Shown here: piece after piece, positions 13,399 to 63,076 of the stretch
Numbering within the stretch: the first letter of the stretch is position 1
Layout of the letters: each line of letters starts with the position of its first letter
IMG/VR virus record: IMGVR_UViG_2077657010_000001
Span: 34,323-98,322 of that record
DNA length: 64,000 bases
Reading direction: 5' to 3' (one strand)
Source of the DNA: a virus
The notes under the pieces: generated by a model
Databases searched by the model: none
What the model was told of the DNA's origin: nothing
What the model saw: only the letters and a program-made list of their open reading frames with translations
Position numbers and translations under genes: made by a program

Positions 13399-13917
13399 AT
13401 GAAGATTATCACTTCGTTGCTCCTGGCATTGCTTTTGGTAGGGTGCCAACTTCCTGACGCTGTATTTAAGACGCATAATCATCGCCTCACTGACGAGGAA
13501 GTGGCGCGTATTGTAAATATGGTCAAGGAGGATGGCAATAAGAATGAGGTATTCATGATGGAGTTAAAGGCACCGCCTGATATTTCCGATTATGAAAACC
13601 TGTTGAGCAATGAGCGTGTACTGCGTAAGTATTCTGATCATCTTAATTTATACTTTGAGCAGGTATTCGCTTATACCGCAACATTCAACCTCTATGCAAA
13701 AGAACGTGGGTGGAAGCCTCCTGAGCATCCACCTGTGTGTCGAATTCTTGATATAGATACGTTAGACGAATTACCTCCATTTGAGAATGTGGGTGAATCT
13801 AAAGACCTTAATTGGCAACTGGCCGATTATATCAAACGTCTTAAAGTGTTCTATGGCCAAGAATCCAATGAACAGGAAGTAACCAAAATTTTCCAACGTT
13901 TTTTATGCGTTTATTAA
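13399..13917 (+). CDS. Lipoprotein, candidate o-spanin
   Basis: MKIITSLLLALLLVG-C lipobox; Pro-rich segments (PPEHPPVC, ELPP). Confidence 0.6.
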   Translation: MKIITSLLLALLLVGCQLPDAVFKTHNHRLTDEEVARIVNMVKEDGNKNEVFMMELKAPPDISDYENLLSNERVLRKYSDHLNLYFEQVFAYTATFNLYAKERGWKPPEHPPVCRILDIDTLDELPPFENVGESKDLNWQLADYIKRLKVFYGQESNEQEVTKIFQRFLCVY

Positions 13918-13924
13918 AGTAAAA

Positions 13925-13968
13925 AAAATACAGGCGATGTGGCGTTCTCGCCATGTCCCTGTATTTTT
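13925..13968. terminator. Terminator-like hairpin
   Basis: AAAATACAGG..ATGTGGCG-TTCT-CGCCATGT..CCTGTATTTTT. Confidence 0.6.
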
Positions 13969-14009
13969 ATATGCATCTAGTATCCTTTGAGCAGTAAAAG
14001 GAGTACCTC

Positions 14010-14708
14010 ATGTTTGCAACTATAAACCCACCTACCGTCGTCGTTGGGCTGGATGTCGAGACAAAAGCCCTTGTTCCTAACTCATATATTTTATCCGTTG
14101 GACTTGCCGCTTACGACATTAAGACACTACGGTGTGTTGAATTTGCTGAATTCGTTTTCGACCCAAACGACCCAGAGCAAATTACACGTGCTATCGATAA
14201 AAACACCATTGAATGGTGGCACAATCATCAAGATAACAATCCACGTTACCCAACTAAGGCTGTCTTTGAACACACTTGGGGTGGTACATTGCCATTCTCA
14301 ACCGGCATGAGTAAATTGGCGTCAATACTTCGACCCTATAGCAAGCGCGATGATGTTGTCATGCCAATGCGTGGCCCTGACTTTGACATGCCTATTCTCA
14401 TTAATGCCCTTCAAGAAACAGGCAACCGTAAAGGTGCGCTCTATGCCCGCAATTTAGACTCACACCGTACAGTGGAAAAGGTCATTGCAAGTTTAGAGTT
14501 GCCTGCATTAACTGAAAAAGAAGTTATCGCCAATATTGGTGAGATTAAATTACATACTGCTGGGTTTGATGCTGCTGTCGAGGCGTACGATACTGCACGA
14601 ATGTACCATGGCCTGCATCTCATTAAAGAGTTAGGATATGAAAAGACCTACGCTTATTTCGAATCCCTAGCAAGTGGCGATAGCATTTCATTCCCGAATA
14701 CAAAATAA
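14010..14708 (+). CDS. DEDDh 3'-5' exonuclease
   Basis: ExoI LDVET, ExoII RGPDFD, ExoIII HTAGFDA. Confidence 0.85.
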   Translation: MFATINPPTVVVGLDVETKALVPNSYILSVGLAAYDIKTLRCVEFAEFVFDPNDPEQITRAIDKNTIEWWHNHQDNNPRYPTKAVFEHTWGGTLPFSTGMSKLASILRPYSKRDDVVMPMRGPDFDMPILINALQETGNRKGALYARNLDSHRTVEKVIASLELPALTEKEVIANIGEIKLHTAGFDAAVEAYDTARMYHGLHLIKELGYEKTYAYFESLASGDSISFPNTK

Positions 14709-14713
14709 ACAGA

Positions 14714-16315
14714 GTGACGACAATGCATTACAAATATGCTGTAATATATACTGATGGTGGTGAATATCAGAATATGGCCGGTGCAGGTATCCACGGATAC
14801 TTGTTTAATGATTTACCCGCAGTAAGGTTTTCAAAAGTACCTGCGATTATTACACCATCTGGGTATGAACCTAAGCCGTCAGGTGCGCAACTTAAAGATG
14901 AGGCATACAACCCTACTTATAAAGAGTGGGACGTGTCTGTTTCACTACGTGACACCAAAACAGCCATAGCGTCAGGTGCCGATGTGAAAATTGTTGATGG
15001 TTGGTTGCCTTTACCGGGCGGCACATCACAATACGCTGAGCTGACCGCTTTCCTTTGGTTATTCGAACAAACTGAGTTCACATTCGAACATCTCATTGTG
15101 TATAGCGATTCCAATTATCTTGTTAAGGGTATCTACGAGCACCTCAAACAATGGATAAAGCGTGGGTGGAAGAAGCGCGATGGAATGCCTATTGCAAATC
15201 CTGAACTGTGGGTTAAGATCAATGAGGTTGTAAATAACCCAGACTTCTCAGAAAGTCGTGTAGAAAAGATTGCTGCCCACAAAGGTCACTATGGTAATGA
15301 ATGTGCTGACCGAAACGCAACCATGGCACGCTACATGGCAGCTAATGGATACCATGATTGTAAAATCAATATCGCTGACGTTCACGACTTCGATTACTGG
15401 GAGCCTGTTAAAGATTTCCCACCACTTGCAAGTCAAAAGTGGCTAGTCAGCTTTAATGAACGTATTCGTGATAAAAGCGAAATTGATGGAGAAGTCTACA
15501 ACCATTACTTCTTTGCAGACCACACTAAGGAAAACAATCGTCCAGACTTGTTAGCGAAGTTCATTTCTGATGCGAACTATTGTCTGTACCTTTGCAAGGA
15601 ACGGATTAACTTCGTGGATGACATCATCGACAAACACCGTGAGATGATGTGGCGTGGTACGTGTGAGATGTATCAGTCTGAATTGGTTAATCTTGTTAAT
15701 ATGACCAACTTACAGATGCCTAAAAATCTATGGGAGCTTAAGCGTGGGCCTGCGGGTGCGATGGGTTTGTCTGAAGACCGTTGTGAACTAAAAGGGGCTA
15801 AGGCTGAAAATGTCATCTCACATGTCATCAATCCACCAAAACTCTCATATCGGGTAGAAGAATACGAACTTCAACACCGTGAGATTATACAAAGTTATCT
15901 GGCTAAGTCTGGTCGCCGCTTTACAGGTGACGATAACTTCCGTCCATTTAATATCGTTGTTAATGACATCACAGACATCTTGTATGATGATGCTGTTGAT
16001 AAGAAAGGGAATGTGTCGGGTAAAGTGTTATCCGATACATATGGGCAAGTGACTCGCATGTTGGATTTCCATGTCCATCATCCATATAGTGATAAGACTG
16101 CTAAAGTCATCTTAACCTCTAAAGAAGACTTACCAGAGCGTAGCCTTCTCACCAAAATTAAAGATATGAACCCTAAGGTTTCCATCATCACATGGATACA
16201 CACTGGGTACAAGATTAATTATGGTACATTGGTCGAGTATGACGACGGAATCGCACTGTGGACGGCATATGGCTCTACACGGGTACTGACTAAGGAAGAG
16301 CAAGGTATCGCTTAA
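14714..16315 (+). CDS. rnhA: Ribonuclease HI with long C-terminal extension (phiKZ gp155-like)
   Basis: YTDGG, QYAELTA, YSDSNY, WIKRGWK..IANPELW, AHKGHYGNECAD. Confidence 0.92.
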   Translation: MTTMHYKYAVIYTDGGEYQNMAGAGIHGYLFNDLPAVRFSKVPAIITPSGYEPKPSGAQLKDEAYNPTYKEWDVSVSLRDTKTAIASGADVKIVDGWLPLPGGTSQYAELTAFLWLFEQTEFTFEHLIVYSDSNYLVKGIYEHLKQWIKRGWKKRDGMPIANPELWVKINEVVNNPDFSESRVEKIAAHKGHYGNECADRNATMARYMAANGYHDCKINIADVHDFDYWEPVKDFPPLASQKWLVSFNERIRDKSEIDGEVYNHYFFADHTKENNRPDLLAKFISDANYCLYLCKERINFVDDIIDKHREMMWRGTCEMYQSELVNLVNMTNLQMPKNLWELKRGPAGAMGLSEDRCELKGAKAENVISHVINPPKLSYRVEEYELQHREIIQSYLAKSGRRFTGDDNFRPFNIVVNDITDILYDDAVDKKGNVSGKVLSDTYGQVTRMLDFHVHHPYSDKTAKVILTSKEDLPERSLLTKIKDMNPKVSIITWIHTGYKINYGTLVEYDDGIALWTAYGSTRVLTKEEQGIA

Positions 16316-56650: not shown

Positions 56651-58765
56651 ATGATATTAAGGGAAAATGACTGGTATCGGCCTGAATACAAAAATGCGAT
56701 CATCCACTACAGTACAAAGAACCAATCATTCTTGAAGCTAGCAGCGATTCACAGAAAGATGGGTGTTAAGCACTGGTACTGCTGTCTCGCACTTATCAAT
56801 CCTAACCTCGAGTTTATTGATCCACATAGTCCTGACTTGACACTTGACCAACAGACCGAAGTCGTTATTGAGATGTTGATAAACCCATGGTATTTTTTCC
56901 GTGAGTTTGTCAGGGTGCCCGTTGAAGGTGAGTATGTTCCCTTTGAAATTCATCGTGGGTCATTTACACTGATATGGGCATTTTTTAATAACATCGATAT
57001 TGCCCTACTGCTTATCCGTCAGCGTGGTAAAACTGTGACGGTTGCATGTCTATTGACTTACCTTAAGCGTATCTTGAAAGGTGCAAGGACAATCCTTATC
57101 ACTAAAGATAACACATTGCGTACTGAAACATTAACAAAGATGAAGAAGATACGTGATGGGTTGCCGGGGTATGCATGGAGAAGTAGTCGGGATGATGCAG
57201 ATAACAATGAAGTCTTTACCTATAAGGCGAGGGATAACGTATTAGTTACCGCTATCGCACAAGGCTCGATTGCAGCCGCTGAGAATGCGGGACGTGGACT
57301 TACATGTGCACGATTGTTTGGGGATGAGGTTGCCTTTATTCGATTCATTCGTAAAATGCTAGCAGCCGCACTCGCATCCGGCTCACGTGTACGTATCACA
57401 GCAGAGGAACGTGGTATTCCCTACGGTAACGTATTTACTACAACGCCGGGTAAGCGTGACAGTGAAGATGGGCGGTATATTTACGACATGTTCCATGCTG
57501 GGCGATATTGGGATGAGTCTATGCTGGATATACCGACACGAGGTGAGTTGATTGACCATATCAGCAAAAACTCTACCGGTGACCGTGTATTGATTCATGC
57601 GCCGTTTAACCACCGTCAGTTAGGTATGACAGACCGTGAGTTGTACCTCGCCATGGCTAACGCTGGTGGTACTCGTGAAGAGCAGCAACGTGACTTTGGT
57701 CTGCAGTGGACTGCAGGTACCATGTCATCGCCTATCAGTGCTGATGATTCTAAACGCATACGTGAAAGTGTATGTGATCCTATCCCCTATGTTGAGATTT
57801 TCAAAAACACCTATTGTATTAACTGGTATTACAAGCAACACGAAATCGATACAAAGATGCGTGCTAAACACATCATTGGTGTCGATACCTCGGATGCGGT
57901 AGGTCGAGATAATATTGCATTGGTAATGATTAACAGTGAGACGTTGGAGACAGCGGCTACCGCGATTGTCAATGAGTCTAACTTAATTGTATTTTCAAAC
58001 TGGTTATCTGACATTCTAGTTAAGTATGAGAATACTATCTTGGTTATTGAGCGTAAGTCTTCTGCGCCGACTATCATAGATTCCATGCTCATTACCTTAC
58101 CATCGCGGGGAGTTGACCCATCCCGTCGTATCTTTAACCGTGTTGTGCAAGAACGTGATGCGAACGATCCCGATCTTGCTGAATTTACCAAATGTAATCG
58201 TGTCAAAAGTGAGGCTTTCTATGAAGCATACCGCAAGTTCTTTGGCTTCATGACTACGGGTACAAAACGTAAATTACTCTACGGTGAAGTGTTGCAAACT
58301 GCTATTAACATGGCAGGGGATAAAATCAAAGACAAGATGTTAGCCGATGAATTACTTGCACTTGTGGTTAAGGACGGTCGTATTGACCACAAGACTAGCG
58401 GTAATGACGATACCGTAATCGCATGGTTATTAGCTGTATGGTTCATGCTATTTGGTAATCGTCTGAATCACTACGGGGTCTCTAACCGTATACTGATGCG
58501 TCGACATGAAGCAGAAGCAAACGGTGATGATTTCGATAGTGAGGACTATCAACGTCGAGTCAAAGAGCAGGATGAGCTCAGCTCTGAGGTTGATGATATT
58601 TGTATGAAAATAGGGACTTCCTCTAACCCTTACGAGTTAGCTAACTTAAGACGGTTATTAAGAGTTAAACTGGCCAAACTCGATATTGATACGTCACATG
58701 CTAAGACCGTTGGGGAGTTGCGGGAAATTATTGGAAATGAAAAACTTAAGTCGAGGTACATATGA
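56651..58765 (+). CDS. terL: Terminase large subunit (phiKZ gp25-like)
   Basis: NPWYFFRE, Walker A RQRGKT, Walker B FGDEVAF, TTTPG, nuclease IGVDTSDAVGRD and NDDTVIAW. Confidence 0.95.
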   Translation: MILRENDWYRPEYKNAIIHYSTKNQSFLKLAAIHRKMGVKHWYCCLALINPNLEFIDPHSPDLTLDQQTEVVIEMLINPWYFFREFVRVPVEGEYVPFEIHRGSFTLIWAFFNNIDIALLLIRQRGKTVTVACLLTYLKRILKGARTILITKDNTLRTETLTKMKKIRDGLPGYAWRSSRDDADNNEVFTYKARDNVLVTAIAQGSIAAAENAGRGLTCARLFGDEVAFIRFIRKMLAAALASGSRVRITAEERGIPYGNVFTTTPGKRDSEDGRYIYDMFHAGRYWDESMLDIPTRGELIDHISKNSTGDRVLIHAPFNHRQLGMTDRELYLAMANAGGTREEQQRDFGLQWTAGTMSSPISADDSKRIRESVCDPIPYVEIFKNTYCINWYYKQHEIDTKMRAKHIIGVDTSDAVGRDNIALVMINSETLETAATAIVNESNLIVFSNWLSDILVKYENTILVIERKSSAPTIIDSMLITLPSRGVDPSRRIFNRVVQERDANDPDLAEFTKCNRVKSEAFYEAYRKFFGFMTTGTKRKLLYGEVLQTAINMAGDKIKDKMLADELLALVVKDGRIDHKTSGNDDTVIAWLLAVWFMLFGNRLNHYGVSNRILMRRHEAEANGDDFDSEDYQRRVKEQDELSSEVDDICMKIGTSSNPYELANLRRLLRVKLAKLDIDTSHAKTVGELREIIGNEKLKSRYI

Positions 58766-58983
58766 CAGTATTCACAATTTGGCTAGCATTATTACTCTGT
58801 AATATTGCTATTGTCGCAGCGGGTAGCCACTTATATTACGGGATATTACAACGTATCTCTACAATGAGTGGTGGTCTAAAACTACAGATAGCGGTGATCA
58901 TGACTGCATTGACGTTTAGTGCAACTGCGACCGCTAGCACATACCTTTATAGCATTCTGGAGGTCGTGCGTACTGTCCAATGA
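58762..58983 (+). CDS. Small two-TM membrane protein
   Basis: ATGA overlap with terL; GAGG RBS; two hydrophobic helices. Confidence 0.65.
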   Translation: MTVFTIWLALLLCNIAIVAAGSHLYYGILQRISTMSGGLKLQIAVIMTALTFSATATASTYLYSILEVVRTVQ

Positions 58984-58986
58984 TAG

Positions 58987-59019
58987 GTAGGTAGGGCCAT
59001 TTGGCCCTACCTACTTTTT
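58987..59019 (+). terminator. Rho-independent terminator
   Basis: GTAGGTAGGGCC..GGCCCTACCTAC plus T5. Confidence 0.9.
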
Positions 59020-59031
59020 GTGCGATCACAC

Positions 59032-59069
59032 AAAAAAAAATGGCGGAGTGGTCAAAAGACCACCCACCA
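59032..59069 (-). terminator. Rho-independent terminator (minus strand)
   Basis: Minus TGGTGGGTGGTC-TTTT-GACCACTCCGCCA plus T9. Confidence 0.85.
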
Positions 59070-59393
59070 AAAGTATCAACGTGTAATTCAGTCATTCACT
59101 ACACTACAGCGACTGATGAGCCGCTGGGACATTGGCTTATAGTAAGCCATTGATTACATTTAATATTAAGTAGGCGTCCTCGTCTACACATCCCAATAAC
59201 GTGCGCATTTATACGACCGATCGTGGTCATCGCACGACGAGGACGTGCTCGCCTCACAGGTTCACTATATGTGGTCTCGCCTACTAAAGACCACAAAGAG
59301 GCTTCTATGTTATAAATATCATAAGTGCAGGACATCATTTTAGATGTGGAAAGTACACCAACAATGCCTGCAGATAATACAACAATATCCATA
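59032..59393 (-). ncRNA. Candidate structured ncRNA 1 (family unrecognised)
   Basis: Nine or more nested helices, a potential 8 nt pseudoknot, several G-U pairs favouring the minus strand, terminator at 3' end. Confidence 0.5.
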
Positions 59394-59428
59394 GGCCACC
59401 TCCACAATATATACGGTTATGTATTTTT

Positions 59429-60736
59429 TTAACTGTATATATTTGCAGATAATGCTCGCAGTAGTAGATACAACATGGTCGATGTACGTACTGAGGCAAT
59501 GGCAGTGTCTGCACGGAGAGTAGTATGCTTCTTCGCGTACTTCTCTAAGCGTTCACGTAGCTCCAATATAGTTTTATCTGATGAACGTGCTGCTGTATAA
59601 AGTGATTTCATTTTCCACAATATTCCACCAATATCGTTGAATCGGATACGTTCAGTTGAGATGTAATCAAAGGCATGTTGTAATGTCATGTCTATGATCT
59701 CTTCGATGTTTTGACGTTCCTTAACCGACTGCTCACGTGCCATTGCGGTCAATACATCAACAAGCGATTGACGTGATGTGGTTGACATGATGTCTAGGAT
59801 AACCTCAACCAACTCACGTTTAATGAAGCTGGACTCATTACCTGATACGTCGAGTAAGTAATTACGTGCGGTTGTGTACACGTTGGTGGTGTCACGTATG
59901 ATCATCTCACCGTCAACCATTGCGGTTGCAGAACGTGTTTCAATACGCGAATTATCATTACGTACTCTCTCAAGTACTTTGTAATGATCTTTTAATGACT
60001 TACGGATACGGGTTGAAATATCAGACAAGATATAAATGATCTCATCATCCGGACTGAAGTCATTGAACCCATCATAGTGAACGCTCTTACGGTCAATGAA
60101 AGACTCTGCACGCTGCCTTAACACCTCACCCCACGTACCATACTGTTTAATGGCGAACTTCATTGACAGCTGGCTATAGACCGCCTGTGCGGCTTCTTTA
60201 TCGACAAGCTTCTCAAACCAATGGCTGTATAATGATGTCATCAGTTTAAACTGCAACATGACAAGCGCTTCAATGGCTGATTTGTGTATGATAGGATCAC
60301 GCATATTCAACGTGGACATACATTTGTGCACATACCAGACTACTGACAAATTATAAACATCGCCCGTCACTTTCCAATCTTTTCCGATGCTGGGTACTTT
60401 TTCAATACAATCTTTGAGGTACTCTTCGTCGATTTCCAATACATCATCAAACCAGCGGTCTCTGTCTGTATCATAGAAAATGATGCGGTCAACGCCCATC
60501 AGGTTACCGCCAAAAAAGGAGGGGTTATCATCACGTGACGCGATGCTGTTGCTATAGCGTATCACACGTTTAGCCATTTTGGTGTCTGGCGTTACACCCC
60601 ACACGGCTTCATCAAATGCTTGGCCAATTGTAGGGTCTTTAATATCGTTAAAGTCTTCTAATGCAACATCGGGTGATGTATATGTGGGTTTAATTTTTAA
60701 TCTATTACTACGCAGTGGGAGATCATCATTTGACAT
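59429..60736 (-). CDS. Putative virion (head) protein, phiKZ gp32-like
   Basis: GGAG RBS; 435 aa helical; FFGGNLMGV motif; ALE protease-like site near N-terminus. Confidence 0.6.
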   Translation of the reverse strand: MSNDDLPLRSNRLKIKPTYTSPDVALEDFNDIKDPTIGQAFDEAVWGVTPDTKMAKRVIRYSNSIASRDDNPSFFGGNLMGVDRIIFYDTDRDRWFDDVLEIDEEYLKDCIEKVPSIGKDWKVTGDVYNLSVVWYVHKCMSTLNMRDPIIHKSAIEALVMLQFKLMTSLYSHWFEKLVDKEAAQAVYSQLSMKFAIKQYGTWGEVLRQRAESFIDRKSVHYDGFNDFSPDDEIIYILSDISTRIRKSLKDHYKVLERVRNDNSRIETRSATAMVDGEMIIRDTTNVYTTARNYLLDVSGNESSFIKRELVEVILDIMSTTSRQSLVDVLTAMAREQSVKERQNIEEIIDMTLQHAFDYISTERIRFNDIGGILWKMKSLYTAARSSDKTILELRERLEKYAKKHTTLRADTAIASVRTSTMLYLLLRALSANIYS

Positions 60737-62784: not shown

Positions 62785-62820
62785 AAAAAAAGGTACTGGG
62801 GAGGTTACCCTCCCCATACC
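62785..62820 (-). terminator. Rho-independent terminator (minus strand)
   Basis: Minus GGTATGGGGAGG-GTAA-CCTCCCCAGTACC plus T7. Confidence 0.8.
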
Positions 62821-63076
62821 ACCCGGTGAGACATTCCGGTTTACGAGTAGACGACTAATGGCAGAAGTCGTTTTACGTCGATAAACGATAGCTTGACTGG
62901 CAAGTGCTTGAGCATATCGTTATTAGGGGTTGGGGGGTGAGACACCGCGACCCCATGGGTGTATCGGAACCCGACAAAAAATCACCCCCCGTGTAGAAGT
63001 TTATAACAGCTTAGCTGACATGCTATCACGAATGGGAAATGAGCAAGAAACACATTCGTACTGTAACTTCTACATA
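62785..63076 (-). ncRNA. Candidate structured ncRNA 2 (family unrecognised)
   Basis: ORF-free ~290 nt of back-to-back helices; minus-strand TATG at the 5' edge and terminator at the 3' edge; no minus-strand gene upstream to explain the terminator. Confidence 0.6.

Follow-up and report, generated by a model that had tools for sequence, protein, structure and literature searches.

A small orphan open reading frame with a predicted stable mRNA fold at the end of an operon in a phiKZ-like jumbo phage

Described systems closest to the element

The small accessory orphan genes (ORFans) that lie at the ends of operons of jumbo phages and other phages resemble the element that we analyzed, which is at positions 59032-59393 of the window (by which we mean the whole 64,000-nt stretch of DNA). 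Like them, the element has a Shine-Dalgarno sequence, an ATG, a short open reading frame (ORF), and an intrinsic terminator. It is also confined to a narrow clade, is missing from the isolates nearest to it, has neither a family nor a fold assigned, and shows mosaic divergence relative to a core neighbor gene. The element differs from ORFans in its atypical codon use and its random-looking amino acid replacements, in having an mRNA whose predicted stability is in the top 1-2%, and in showing hints of compensatory change.

Another set of comparisons is the dual-function or structured coding RNAs, such as the hok mRNA, RNAIII, SgrS, and the genomes of RNA phages. As in these RNAs, the ORF of the element lies within an extensive fold that has a helix closing the 5' end against the 3' end, and the start codon is predicted to be paired. 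It also appears that there is conservation at the level of the RNA alongside weak conservation of the peptide. In the hok/sok system, translation stays off until the mRNA, which is highly folded, has been processed. Unlike the hok mRNA, RNAIII, and SgrS, however, our element is a candidate from its sequence alone, with no known processing site, target, or antisense partner, and we do not count it as a member of this group.

Small RNAs have been described in jumbo phages as well. An ONT-cappable-seq study of phiKZ and 201phi2-1 reports 11 sRNAs, including one that is conserved upstream of a tail gene (PMC11512511). As described there, these sRNAs were filtered to be under 250 nt, and most of them derive from 5' UTRs by premature termination; none is reported beside terL in the part of the study that we consulted (PMC11512511). 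These sRNAs and our element are alike in being jumbo-phage transcripts that are bounded by a terminator, but the element is about 360 nt long, is at a 3' end, and contains a full ORF (PMC11512511).

Finally, the phi29 pRNA is encoded close to packaging genes, as is our element, and the element contains a loop complement that could in principle mediate RNA-RNA contacts. On the other hand, phi29 is another type of phage, its pRNA does not match the element in sequence or in structure, and conservation of the element does not extend to relatives that share the terminase.

The operon and its last reading frame

The window is from a 98-kb IMG/VR record (the contig) with an estimated completeness of 42%, which we identify as a phiKZ-like jumbo phage. 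The features around the element are:

56651-58765, plus strand: terL (PHROG 2)
58762-58983, plus strand: 73-aa ORF in the terL operon
58985-59020, plus strand: intrinsic terminator of the terL operon, as read from the sequence
59032-59069, minus strand: intrinsic terminator of the minus-strand unit, with a 12-pair stem (59041-59069) and then T9 (59032-59040)
59099-59392, minus strand: 97-codon ORF, which carries the helices (ATG at 59392-59390, TAG at 59101-59099)
59397-59403, minus strand: Shine-Dalgarno sequence GGAGGTG, a 7-nt match to the complement of the anti-Shine-Dalgarno
59429-60736, minus strand: upstream gene encoding 435 aa (PHROG 2921 match, 3.9e-142), in the same operon as the 97-codon ORF

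PHROG 2921 is annotated as “putative virion structural protein” in SPN3US-like phages. The 435-aa protein has homologs in 290 phiKZ-like jumbo phages, and its best match from an isolate is in Vibrio phage pVa-21 (58% identity). Between the stop codon of this gene and the start of the 97-codon ORF there is a spacer of 36 nt (59393-59428), and we found no terminator between the two genes. The ORF occupies the gap between the upstream stop codon and the minus-strand terminator, in which the T9 run is preceded by a G+C-rich hairpin. The initial annotation had placed the element on the minus strand, convergent on the terL operon, and we agree: the element is on the other strand from terL and has its own intrinsic terminator, opposite in strand to that of terL, so the two units are convergent. 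ARAGORN identified no tRNA or tmRNA in the window.

On the plus strand, the 73-aa ORF overlaps the stop codon of terL by 4 nt (ATGA). Its product is hydrophobic, with only a weak SCAMP-like match in Pfam, and its codon score is low (-0.009). It probably encodes a small membrane protein that is co-translated with terL.

The element had been described as a non-coding RNA or a 3' UTR. This label is probably incorrect, as the element coincides with a 97-codon ORF that is led by a Shine-Dalgarno sequence and is open in three lineages. The ribosome-binding site is correctly spaced, with the GGAGG core 6 nt upstream of the ATG, and the 7-nt match is longer than that of any of the 50 long genes of the contig (which range from 0 to 6 nt). 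A Shine-Dalgarno match of at least 5 nt was seen for just 1 of 81 spurious (shadow) ORFs. Also, when the region is shuffled with its dinucleotides preserved, 0.48% of the shuffles contain an ATG-initiated ORF of at least 97 codons. Because the 97-codon frame is open and has an excellent ribosome-binding site, a small orphan gene seems more likely to us than a free-standing ncRNA. If we also count the possibility that this is an ordinary gene whose mRNA structure is incidental, then we infer with good confidence that the ORF is translated. The product would be a small, basic, arginine-rich orphan protein of 97 aa.

The TATG at 59393, at the edge of the element, had been taken for a late-promoter motif. 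It consists of a T and the start codon of the ORF. With 539 occurrences in the window, fewer than in shuffles, TATG is uninformative as a mark of promoters, and we rejected it as one.

Relatives of the ORF were found in three lineages. We know them solely as proteins from Logan contigs, and comparisons of their nucleotides rest on inferred codons. The relatives are encoded by six Logan contigs, of 4552, 1716, 92909, 24437, 23498, and 1944 nt. For each lineage, we assumed that the relative of the ORF and the copy of the neighbor gene came from the same contig, because their contigs are recorded with equal lengths:

Lineage A (P0002): ORF of 97 aa, 97% identity; neighbor gene 98.9% identity; Logan contig of 4552 nt
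Lineage B (P0003-P0006): ORF of 70 aa, 70-71% identity; neighbor gene 98% identity; Logan contigs of 24437 and 92909 nt
Lineage C (P0050): ORF of 95 aa, 46% identity, with one codon-sized gap; neighbor gene 84% identity; Logan contig of 1944 nt

The start codon and the frame are retained in all three lineages. In other words, a longer-than-chance frame has been kept open, although lineage B is truncated: all four variants have a stop at codon 71, with the loss of 27 residues. This stop is not a contig end, because the contigs reach 93 kb. The single indel in lineage C is in frame, and if its 51 changed codons were random codons at the same distance, the probability of there being no stop codon would be 0.079.

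Outside of these lineages, we did not find similar DNA in the phage collection (using blastn), anything related in IMG/VR (in scans that used proteins, alignments, and DNA patterns), or relatives in scans of JGI metagenomes and of GTDB genomes. (A 16-mer had 55 matches in IMG/VR, but these were due to chance and did not extend.) At the protein level, a search turned up no forms of the ORF that were shorter and split. The element is also absent from the nearest isolates, pVa-21 and CR5, in which other genes occupy this position and similar DNA is lacking, so it appears to be an accessory module that is restricted to a clade.

We also considered whether pVa-21 has an analog of the element in the 697-nt gap by its terL, and rejected this, as the two share no similarity. 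The gap is an unannotated stretch downstream of terL (KY499642.1, 172881-173577) with a folding z of -4.45. It includes at least two small ORFs with Shine-Dalgarno sequences and two terminator-like hairpins. One of the ORFs (69 aa) is the counterpart of the window's 73-aa ORF and another (57 aa) is hydrophobic; these are probably small genes that were missed.

How the ORF diverges relative to its neighbor depends on the lineage. In lineage A, the ORF has diverged by 3% and the neighbor by 1.1%, while in lineage B, these values are 30% and 1.8%. Because the neighbor's divergence is similar in the two lineages and the ORF's divergence is 10-fold apart, we attribute the pattern to the exchange of a module and not to a steady rate of change. 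It is probable that the element has been swapped between related phages by recombination. Replacements in the ORF are 15-fold faster than in its neighbor, which could be read as neutral evolution; we rejected this reading given the discordance between lineages A and B. The discordance also suggests that a recombination boundary lies within or close to the 36-nt spacer.

The ORF does not have the codon usage of this genome. Its codon-usage score of -0.118 is below the 1st percentile of true coding windows (0.178 +/- 0.087) and below all of the roughly 40 likely small genes of the contig; spurious ORFs have a mean of -0.20 (sd 0.11). Nor are the replacements conservative. The mean BLOSUM62 score is -0.59 across 29 distinct replacements, mostly from lineage B, and it is -0.76 for the replacements in lineage C, of which 18% score as positive. 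As baselines, random single-nucleotide nonsynonymous changes average -0.51 and random pairs of residues average -1.2. For the neighbor protein, the averages are +0.5 (at 84% identity) and +0.29 (at 58% identity), and 41-49% of replacements are positive, with the 49% being at 58% identity. The replacements in the ORF are as radical as random mutation, and its peptide seems to be weakly constrained, except for three short blocks. The protein has no match in Pfam, PHROGs, NCBIfam, PADLOC, or the PDB. Its best look-alike in the ESM Atlas has a score of 0.86, which is below the useful range, and the AlphaFold2 model has a pLDDT of 42, with no confident fold.

The predicted fold and its conservation

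When we read the sequence, we found all of the helices that had been listed, along with the 8-nt complement of a loop and the T9 terminator, where the initial annotation had put them. If the ORF is translated, then these helices would be structure within its mRNA. They are:

59082/59153, plus-strand coordinates: TGTAAT/ATTACA helix
59107/59122, plus-strand coordinates: CAGCG/CGCTG helix
59133/59143, plus-strand coordinates: TGGCTTA/TAAGCCA helix
59278-85 and 59169-76, plus-strand coordinates: 8-nt loop complement, CGCCTACT and AGTAGGCG
59175-59245, minus strand: 10-bp helix CGTCCTCGTC/GACGAGGACG (arms at 59175/59236; ORF nt 148-157/209-218), which encloses two inner hairpins
59251-59302, minus strand: GCCTC/GAGGC helix, which encloses a hairpin with its loop at 59278-59285
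59333-59366, minus strand: hairpin, with ORF nt 27-33 paired to 54-60 and 34-38 paired to 46-50

The TGTAAT/ATTACA helix is missing from the minimum-energy fold. The energy of the minus-strand fold is -127.3 kcal/mol, which corresponds to z = -5.96 relative to dinucleotide shuffles, or -5.17 without the terminator. The plus-strand fold has an energy of -102.6 kcal/mol and z = -4.66, so the minus strand is favored, as had been proposed from its G-U pairs. With z from -5.2 to -6.0, the folding energy of the minus strand is far below chance.

We also computed z for 123 tiles of 300 nt from this phage's genome, on both strands. The mean was -1.15 (sd 1.44), with values at or below -5 in 1.2% of cases and at or below -4 in 4.9%. 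The element's z is among the top 1-2% of tiles, and in this sense the multi-hairpin fold is unusually stable. This z is extreme but not unique, because some of the low-z tiles lie in genes with typical codon usage. Since such genes reach z of -4 to -5, coding and strong structure do coexist in this phage.

An example is at 14101-15300 of the contig (-20221 to -19022 relative to the window), where four consecutive tiles of 300 nt have z from -4.1 to -5.3, and the last two of these have low z on both strands. These tiles sit in ORFs of 138 aa and 240 aa that have typical codon use, lack a PHROG match, and adjoin an endolysin-like gene. Within the window, the 3' end of a 172-aa ORF coincides with the tile at 13679-13978, for which the plus-strand z is -7.0, and the tile at 1979-2278 has z of -4.4 and -4.1.

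A comparison to the covariance models of Rfam had been proposed for this candidate. It gave no match at the gathering score in the whole window, so no Rfam family, including phage pRNA, group I introns, ribozymes, and GOLLD/ROOL, matches the element. Even with a threshold of E <= 10, the best matches within 58500-60000 were at chance level and were on the terminators.

Is the fold conserved between relatives? The nucleotide changes were inferred from the amino acid changes by parsimony, and because of this, synonymous changes are invisible. For lineage B, there are 22 inferred changes, and the inferred sequence folds with an energy of -132 kcal/mol, as compared to -127 kcal/mol for the sequence from the window. 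As the null for this lineage, we used matched random nonsynonymous changes with the same base types. Their minimum free energy was -123.7 +/- 4.4 kcal/mol, and 5% of them fold as well as the inferred sequence does. If the window's structure is imposed on the inferred sequence, then its energy is -116 (versus -104 +/- 6.1 for the null), a value that 2% of nulls reach; for the two-sequence alifold energy, this share is 0.75%.

For lineage C, the results are less clear. Of the 95 predicted pairs, 13 are impossible under any choice of codons (versus 20 for the null) and 25 are broken under parsimony (versus 31), with p of 0.02-0.04 for both counts. With a stricter null that keeps the types of base change, 27 of the 95 pairs are broken versus 32.8 +/- 3.4, and p is 0.05-0.25. 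As inferred from amino acids, then, the fit of the changes to the fold has p of 0.0075-0.05 for lineage B, and for lineage C the covariation is weak. In P0002, all 3 of 3 changes are compatible with the structure.

There are five apparent compensatory pairs among the inferred changes (ORF nt 32-55, 28-59, 128-134, 272-281, and 4-265). In lineage B, U32:A55 would have become C:G. In lineage C, the corresponding changes would be A28:U59 to G:C, G128:C134 to A:U, G272:U281 to C:G, and G4:C265 to A:U; the last of these pairs (4-265) would be G:U in P0002. Besides two compensatory pairs, the hairpin at 59333-59366 has inferred wobble changes at 29-58 and 35-49. The stop codon in lineage B is inferred to be CGA to TGA, which is the sole single-step route, and it would turn G155:C211 into G:U. 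As for the other helices, the 7-pair core of the 10-bp helix is unchanged at the visible positions, and lineage C has lost the two outer pairs of this helix. The GCCTC/GAGGC helix is invariant at the visible positions in lineage C, and its outer helix contains two mismatches in P0003. In lineage C, the first hairpin has not kept its outer part. Overall, these comparisons are suggestive of selection on parts of the fold, most strongly for the hairpin at ORF nt 27-60.

The 8-nt complement had been interpreted as a pseudoknot or a switch. The complement is indeed exact, but it is not significant: a perfect 8-nt complement between a loop and the sequence outside of it arises in 11 of 200 dinucleotide shuffles (p about 0.055). 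There is also an overlap with two pairs of the 10-bp helix, and what could form is therefore a 6-bp pseudoknot or a switch. The 3' partner cannot be seen in lineage B because it is beyond the stop codon. In lineage C, the pseudoknot is possible only under particular codon choices, and a swap of A108:U224 to U:A within it fits only if a Phe codon is UUU. We view the pseudoknot as suggestive.

Weighing the explanations

The explanation that we favor, and that we think has a somewhat better than even chance of being right as a whole, is that the element is a translated small orphan gene, at the end of its operon, with an mRNA that is structured and whose structure is possibly selected. This cistron, the last one in a minus-strand operon of a phiKZ-like jumbo phage, would run from a strong ribosome-binding site through the 97-codon ORF to the intrinsic terminator. 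The fold of its mRNA would be stable and appears to be partly maintained between relatives. It would probably protect the 3' end of the operon's transcript from decay, tune translation, or both; the AUG and the codons right after it are predicted to be mostly paired.

It is unlikely, in our judgment, that the element is a free-standing structured ncRNA or the 3' UTR of the PHROG 2921 mRNA, with the ORF and its Shine-Dalgarno sequence being incidental or part of a helix. Such an RNA would fit with the preference for the minus strand and its z of -5.2 to -6.0, with codon use like that of spurious ORFs, and with amino acid replacements that are indistinguishable from random. It would also fit with the compatibility of lineage B with the structure (p 0.0075-0.05), with the five inferred compensatory pairs, and with a truncating change in lineage B that would keep a G:U pair. 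Also, the GGAGG can pair with CCUC at ORF nt 92-95 in an extended fold. But the joint chance of such an ORF (0.5%) and of a Shine-Dalgarno match of at least 5 nt (about 1%) is roughly 1e-4 or less, and the frame is open at 46% identity, with an indel that is in frame. Furthermore, there is no match in Rfam even at E <= 10, the covariation was derived solely from amino acids and is weak for lineage C, and the pseudoknot is not significant. A pure ncRNA keeps a minor share of our belief because selection on the protein is invisible in both the codon use and the pattern of replacements. We are similarly doubtful that the multi-domain fold of about 300 nt, perhaps together with the long-range pseudoknot, is itself what is selected (as a riboregulator or as an RNA that stabilizes transcripts or is associated with assembly, and that related phages exchange as a module), with the ORF being incidental or secondary. 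Another explanation to which we assign a low probability is an ordinary orphan gene that is fast-evolving, young, or decaying, with an mRNA structure that is incidental and not selected. The codon-typical genes at 14.1-15.3 kb, which also reach z of -4 to -5, are consistent with this, as are the 27 of 95 predicted pairs that are broken in lineage C and the p of 0.05-0.25 with the stricter null. Absence from pVa-21 and CR5 and divergence that is discordant with the neighbor's (30% vs. 1.8% and 3% vs. 1.1%) would be expected too. Yet, in preserving the fold, the changes of lineage B do better than 95-99% of random changes that were matched to them, several double changes restore pairs, and z is in the top 1-2% of tiles.

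Two more specific functions seem far less probable. A type I toxin-like module, with a small toxic peptide and a folded mRNA that silences translation until it is processed, is very improbable. In its favor, the ORF is closed by long-range pairing between its nt 3-8 and 261-266, the closing pair G4:C265 is inferred to change to A:U in lineage C and to G:U in P0002, the AUG is mostly paired (its probability of being unpaired is 0.02-0.16 from the partition function), and residues 3-16 form a hydrophobic stretch. However, this stretch is about 15 residues long, has E13 or G13 along with P17 in lineage B, and has been replaced in lineage C, so there is no conserved small hydrophobic membrane peptide such as hok-like toxins have. 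No promoter for an antisense RNA stands out, no toxin family in Pfam matches, and 70-97 aa exceeds the size of typical type I toxins. The accessibility of the initiation region is also ordinary (0.37, as compared to 0.45 +/- 0.11 for the phage's genes, with 10 of 50 genes being less accessible). Because this is within the normal range, we make no claim that occlusion of the initiation region controls translation. An RNA for packaging or assembly, as had been hypothesized, would be analogous to the pRNA of phi29 and would oligomerize via the 8-nt loop complement; to this we give almost no credence. Its sole support is that complement and the position beside terL. The complement is at chance level (0.055), Rfam yields no matching family either at the gathering score or at E <= 10, related jumbo phages with the same terL (pVa-21 and CR5) lack the element, and the element is an ORF led by a Shine-Dalgarno sequence. 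We return to the small orphan gene as the best explanation.

If this is a simple small orphan gene, then it is ordinary, yet identifying it corrects what is likely to be a false call of an ncRNA. What would be less ordinary is the combination of a translatable frame, near-random replacement of amino acids, and hints that base pairs are preserved rather than residues. If that is true at the nucleotide level, then this would be a phage coding RNA in which structure outweighs the peptide. It would also provide a handle on mRNA stability or the control of translation in nucleus-forming jumbo phages.

A neighboring candidate from the initial annotation, at 62785-63076, is in a gap of about 345 nt inside an island of plus-strand genes. 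The gap has no ORF of more than 54 aa. On the minus strand there is a terminator near 62785-62815, with a GGGGAGG...CCTCCCC hairpin and then a run of T. The folding z is -3.7 for the minus strand and -5.0 for the plus strand. Because it is without a long ORF, this region is a better candidate for an ncRNA than the element at 59032-59393.
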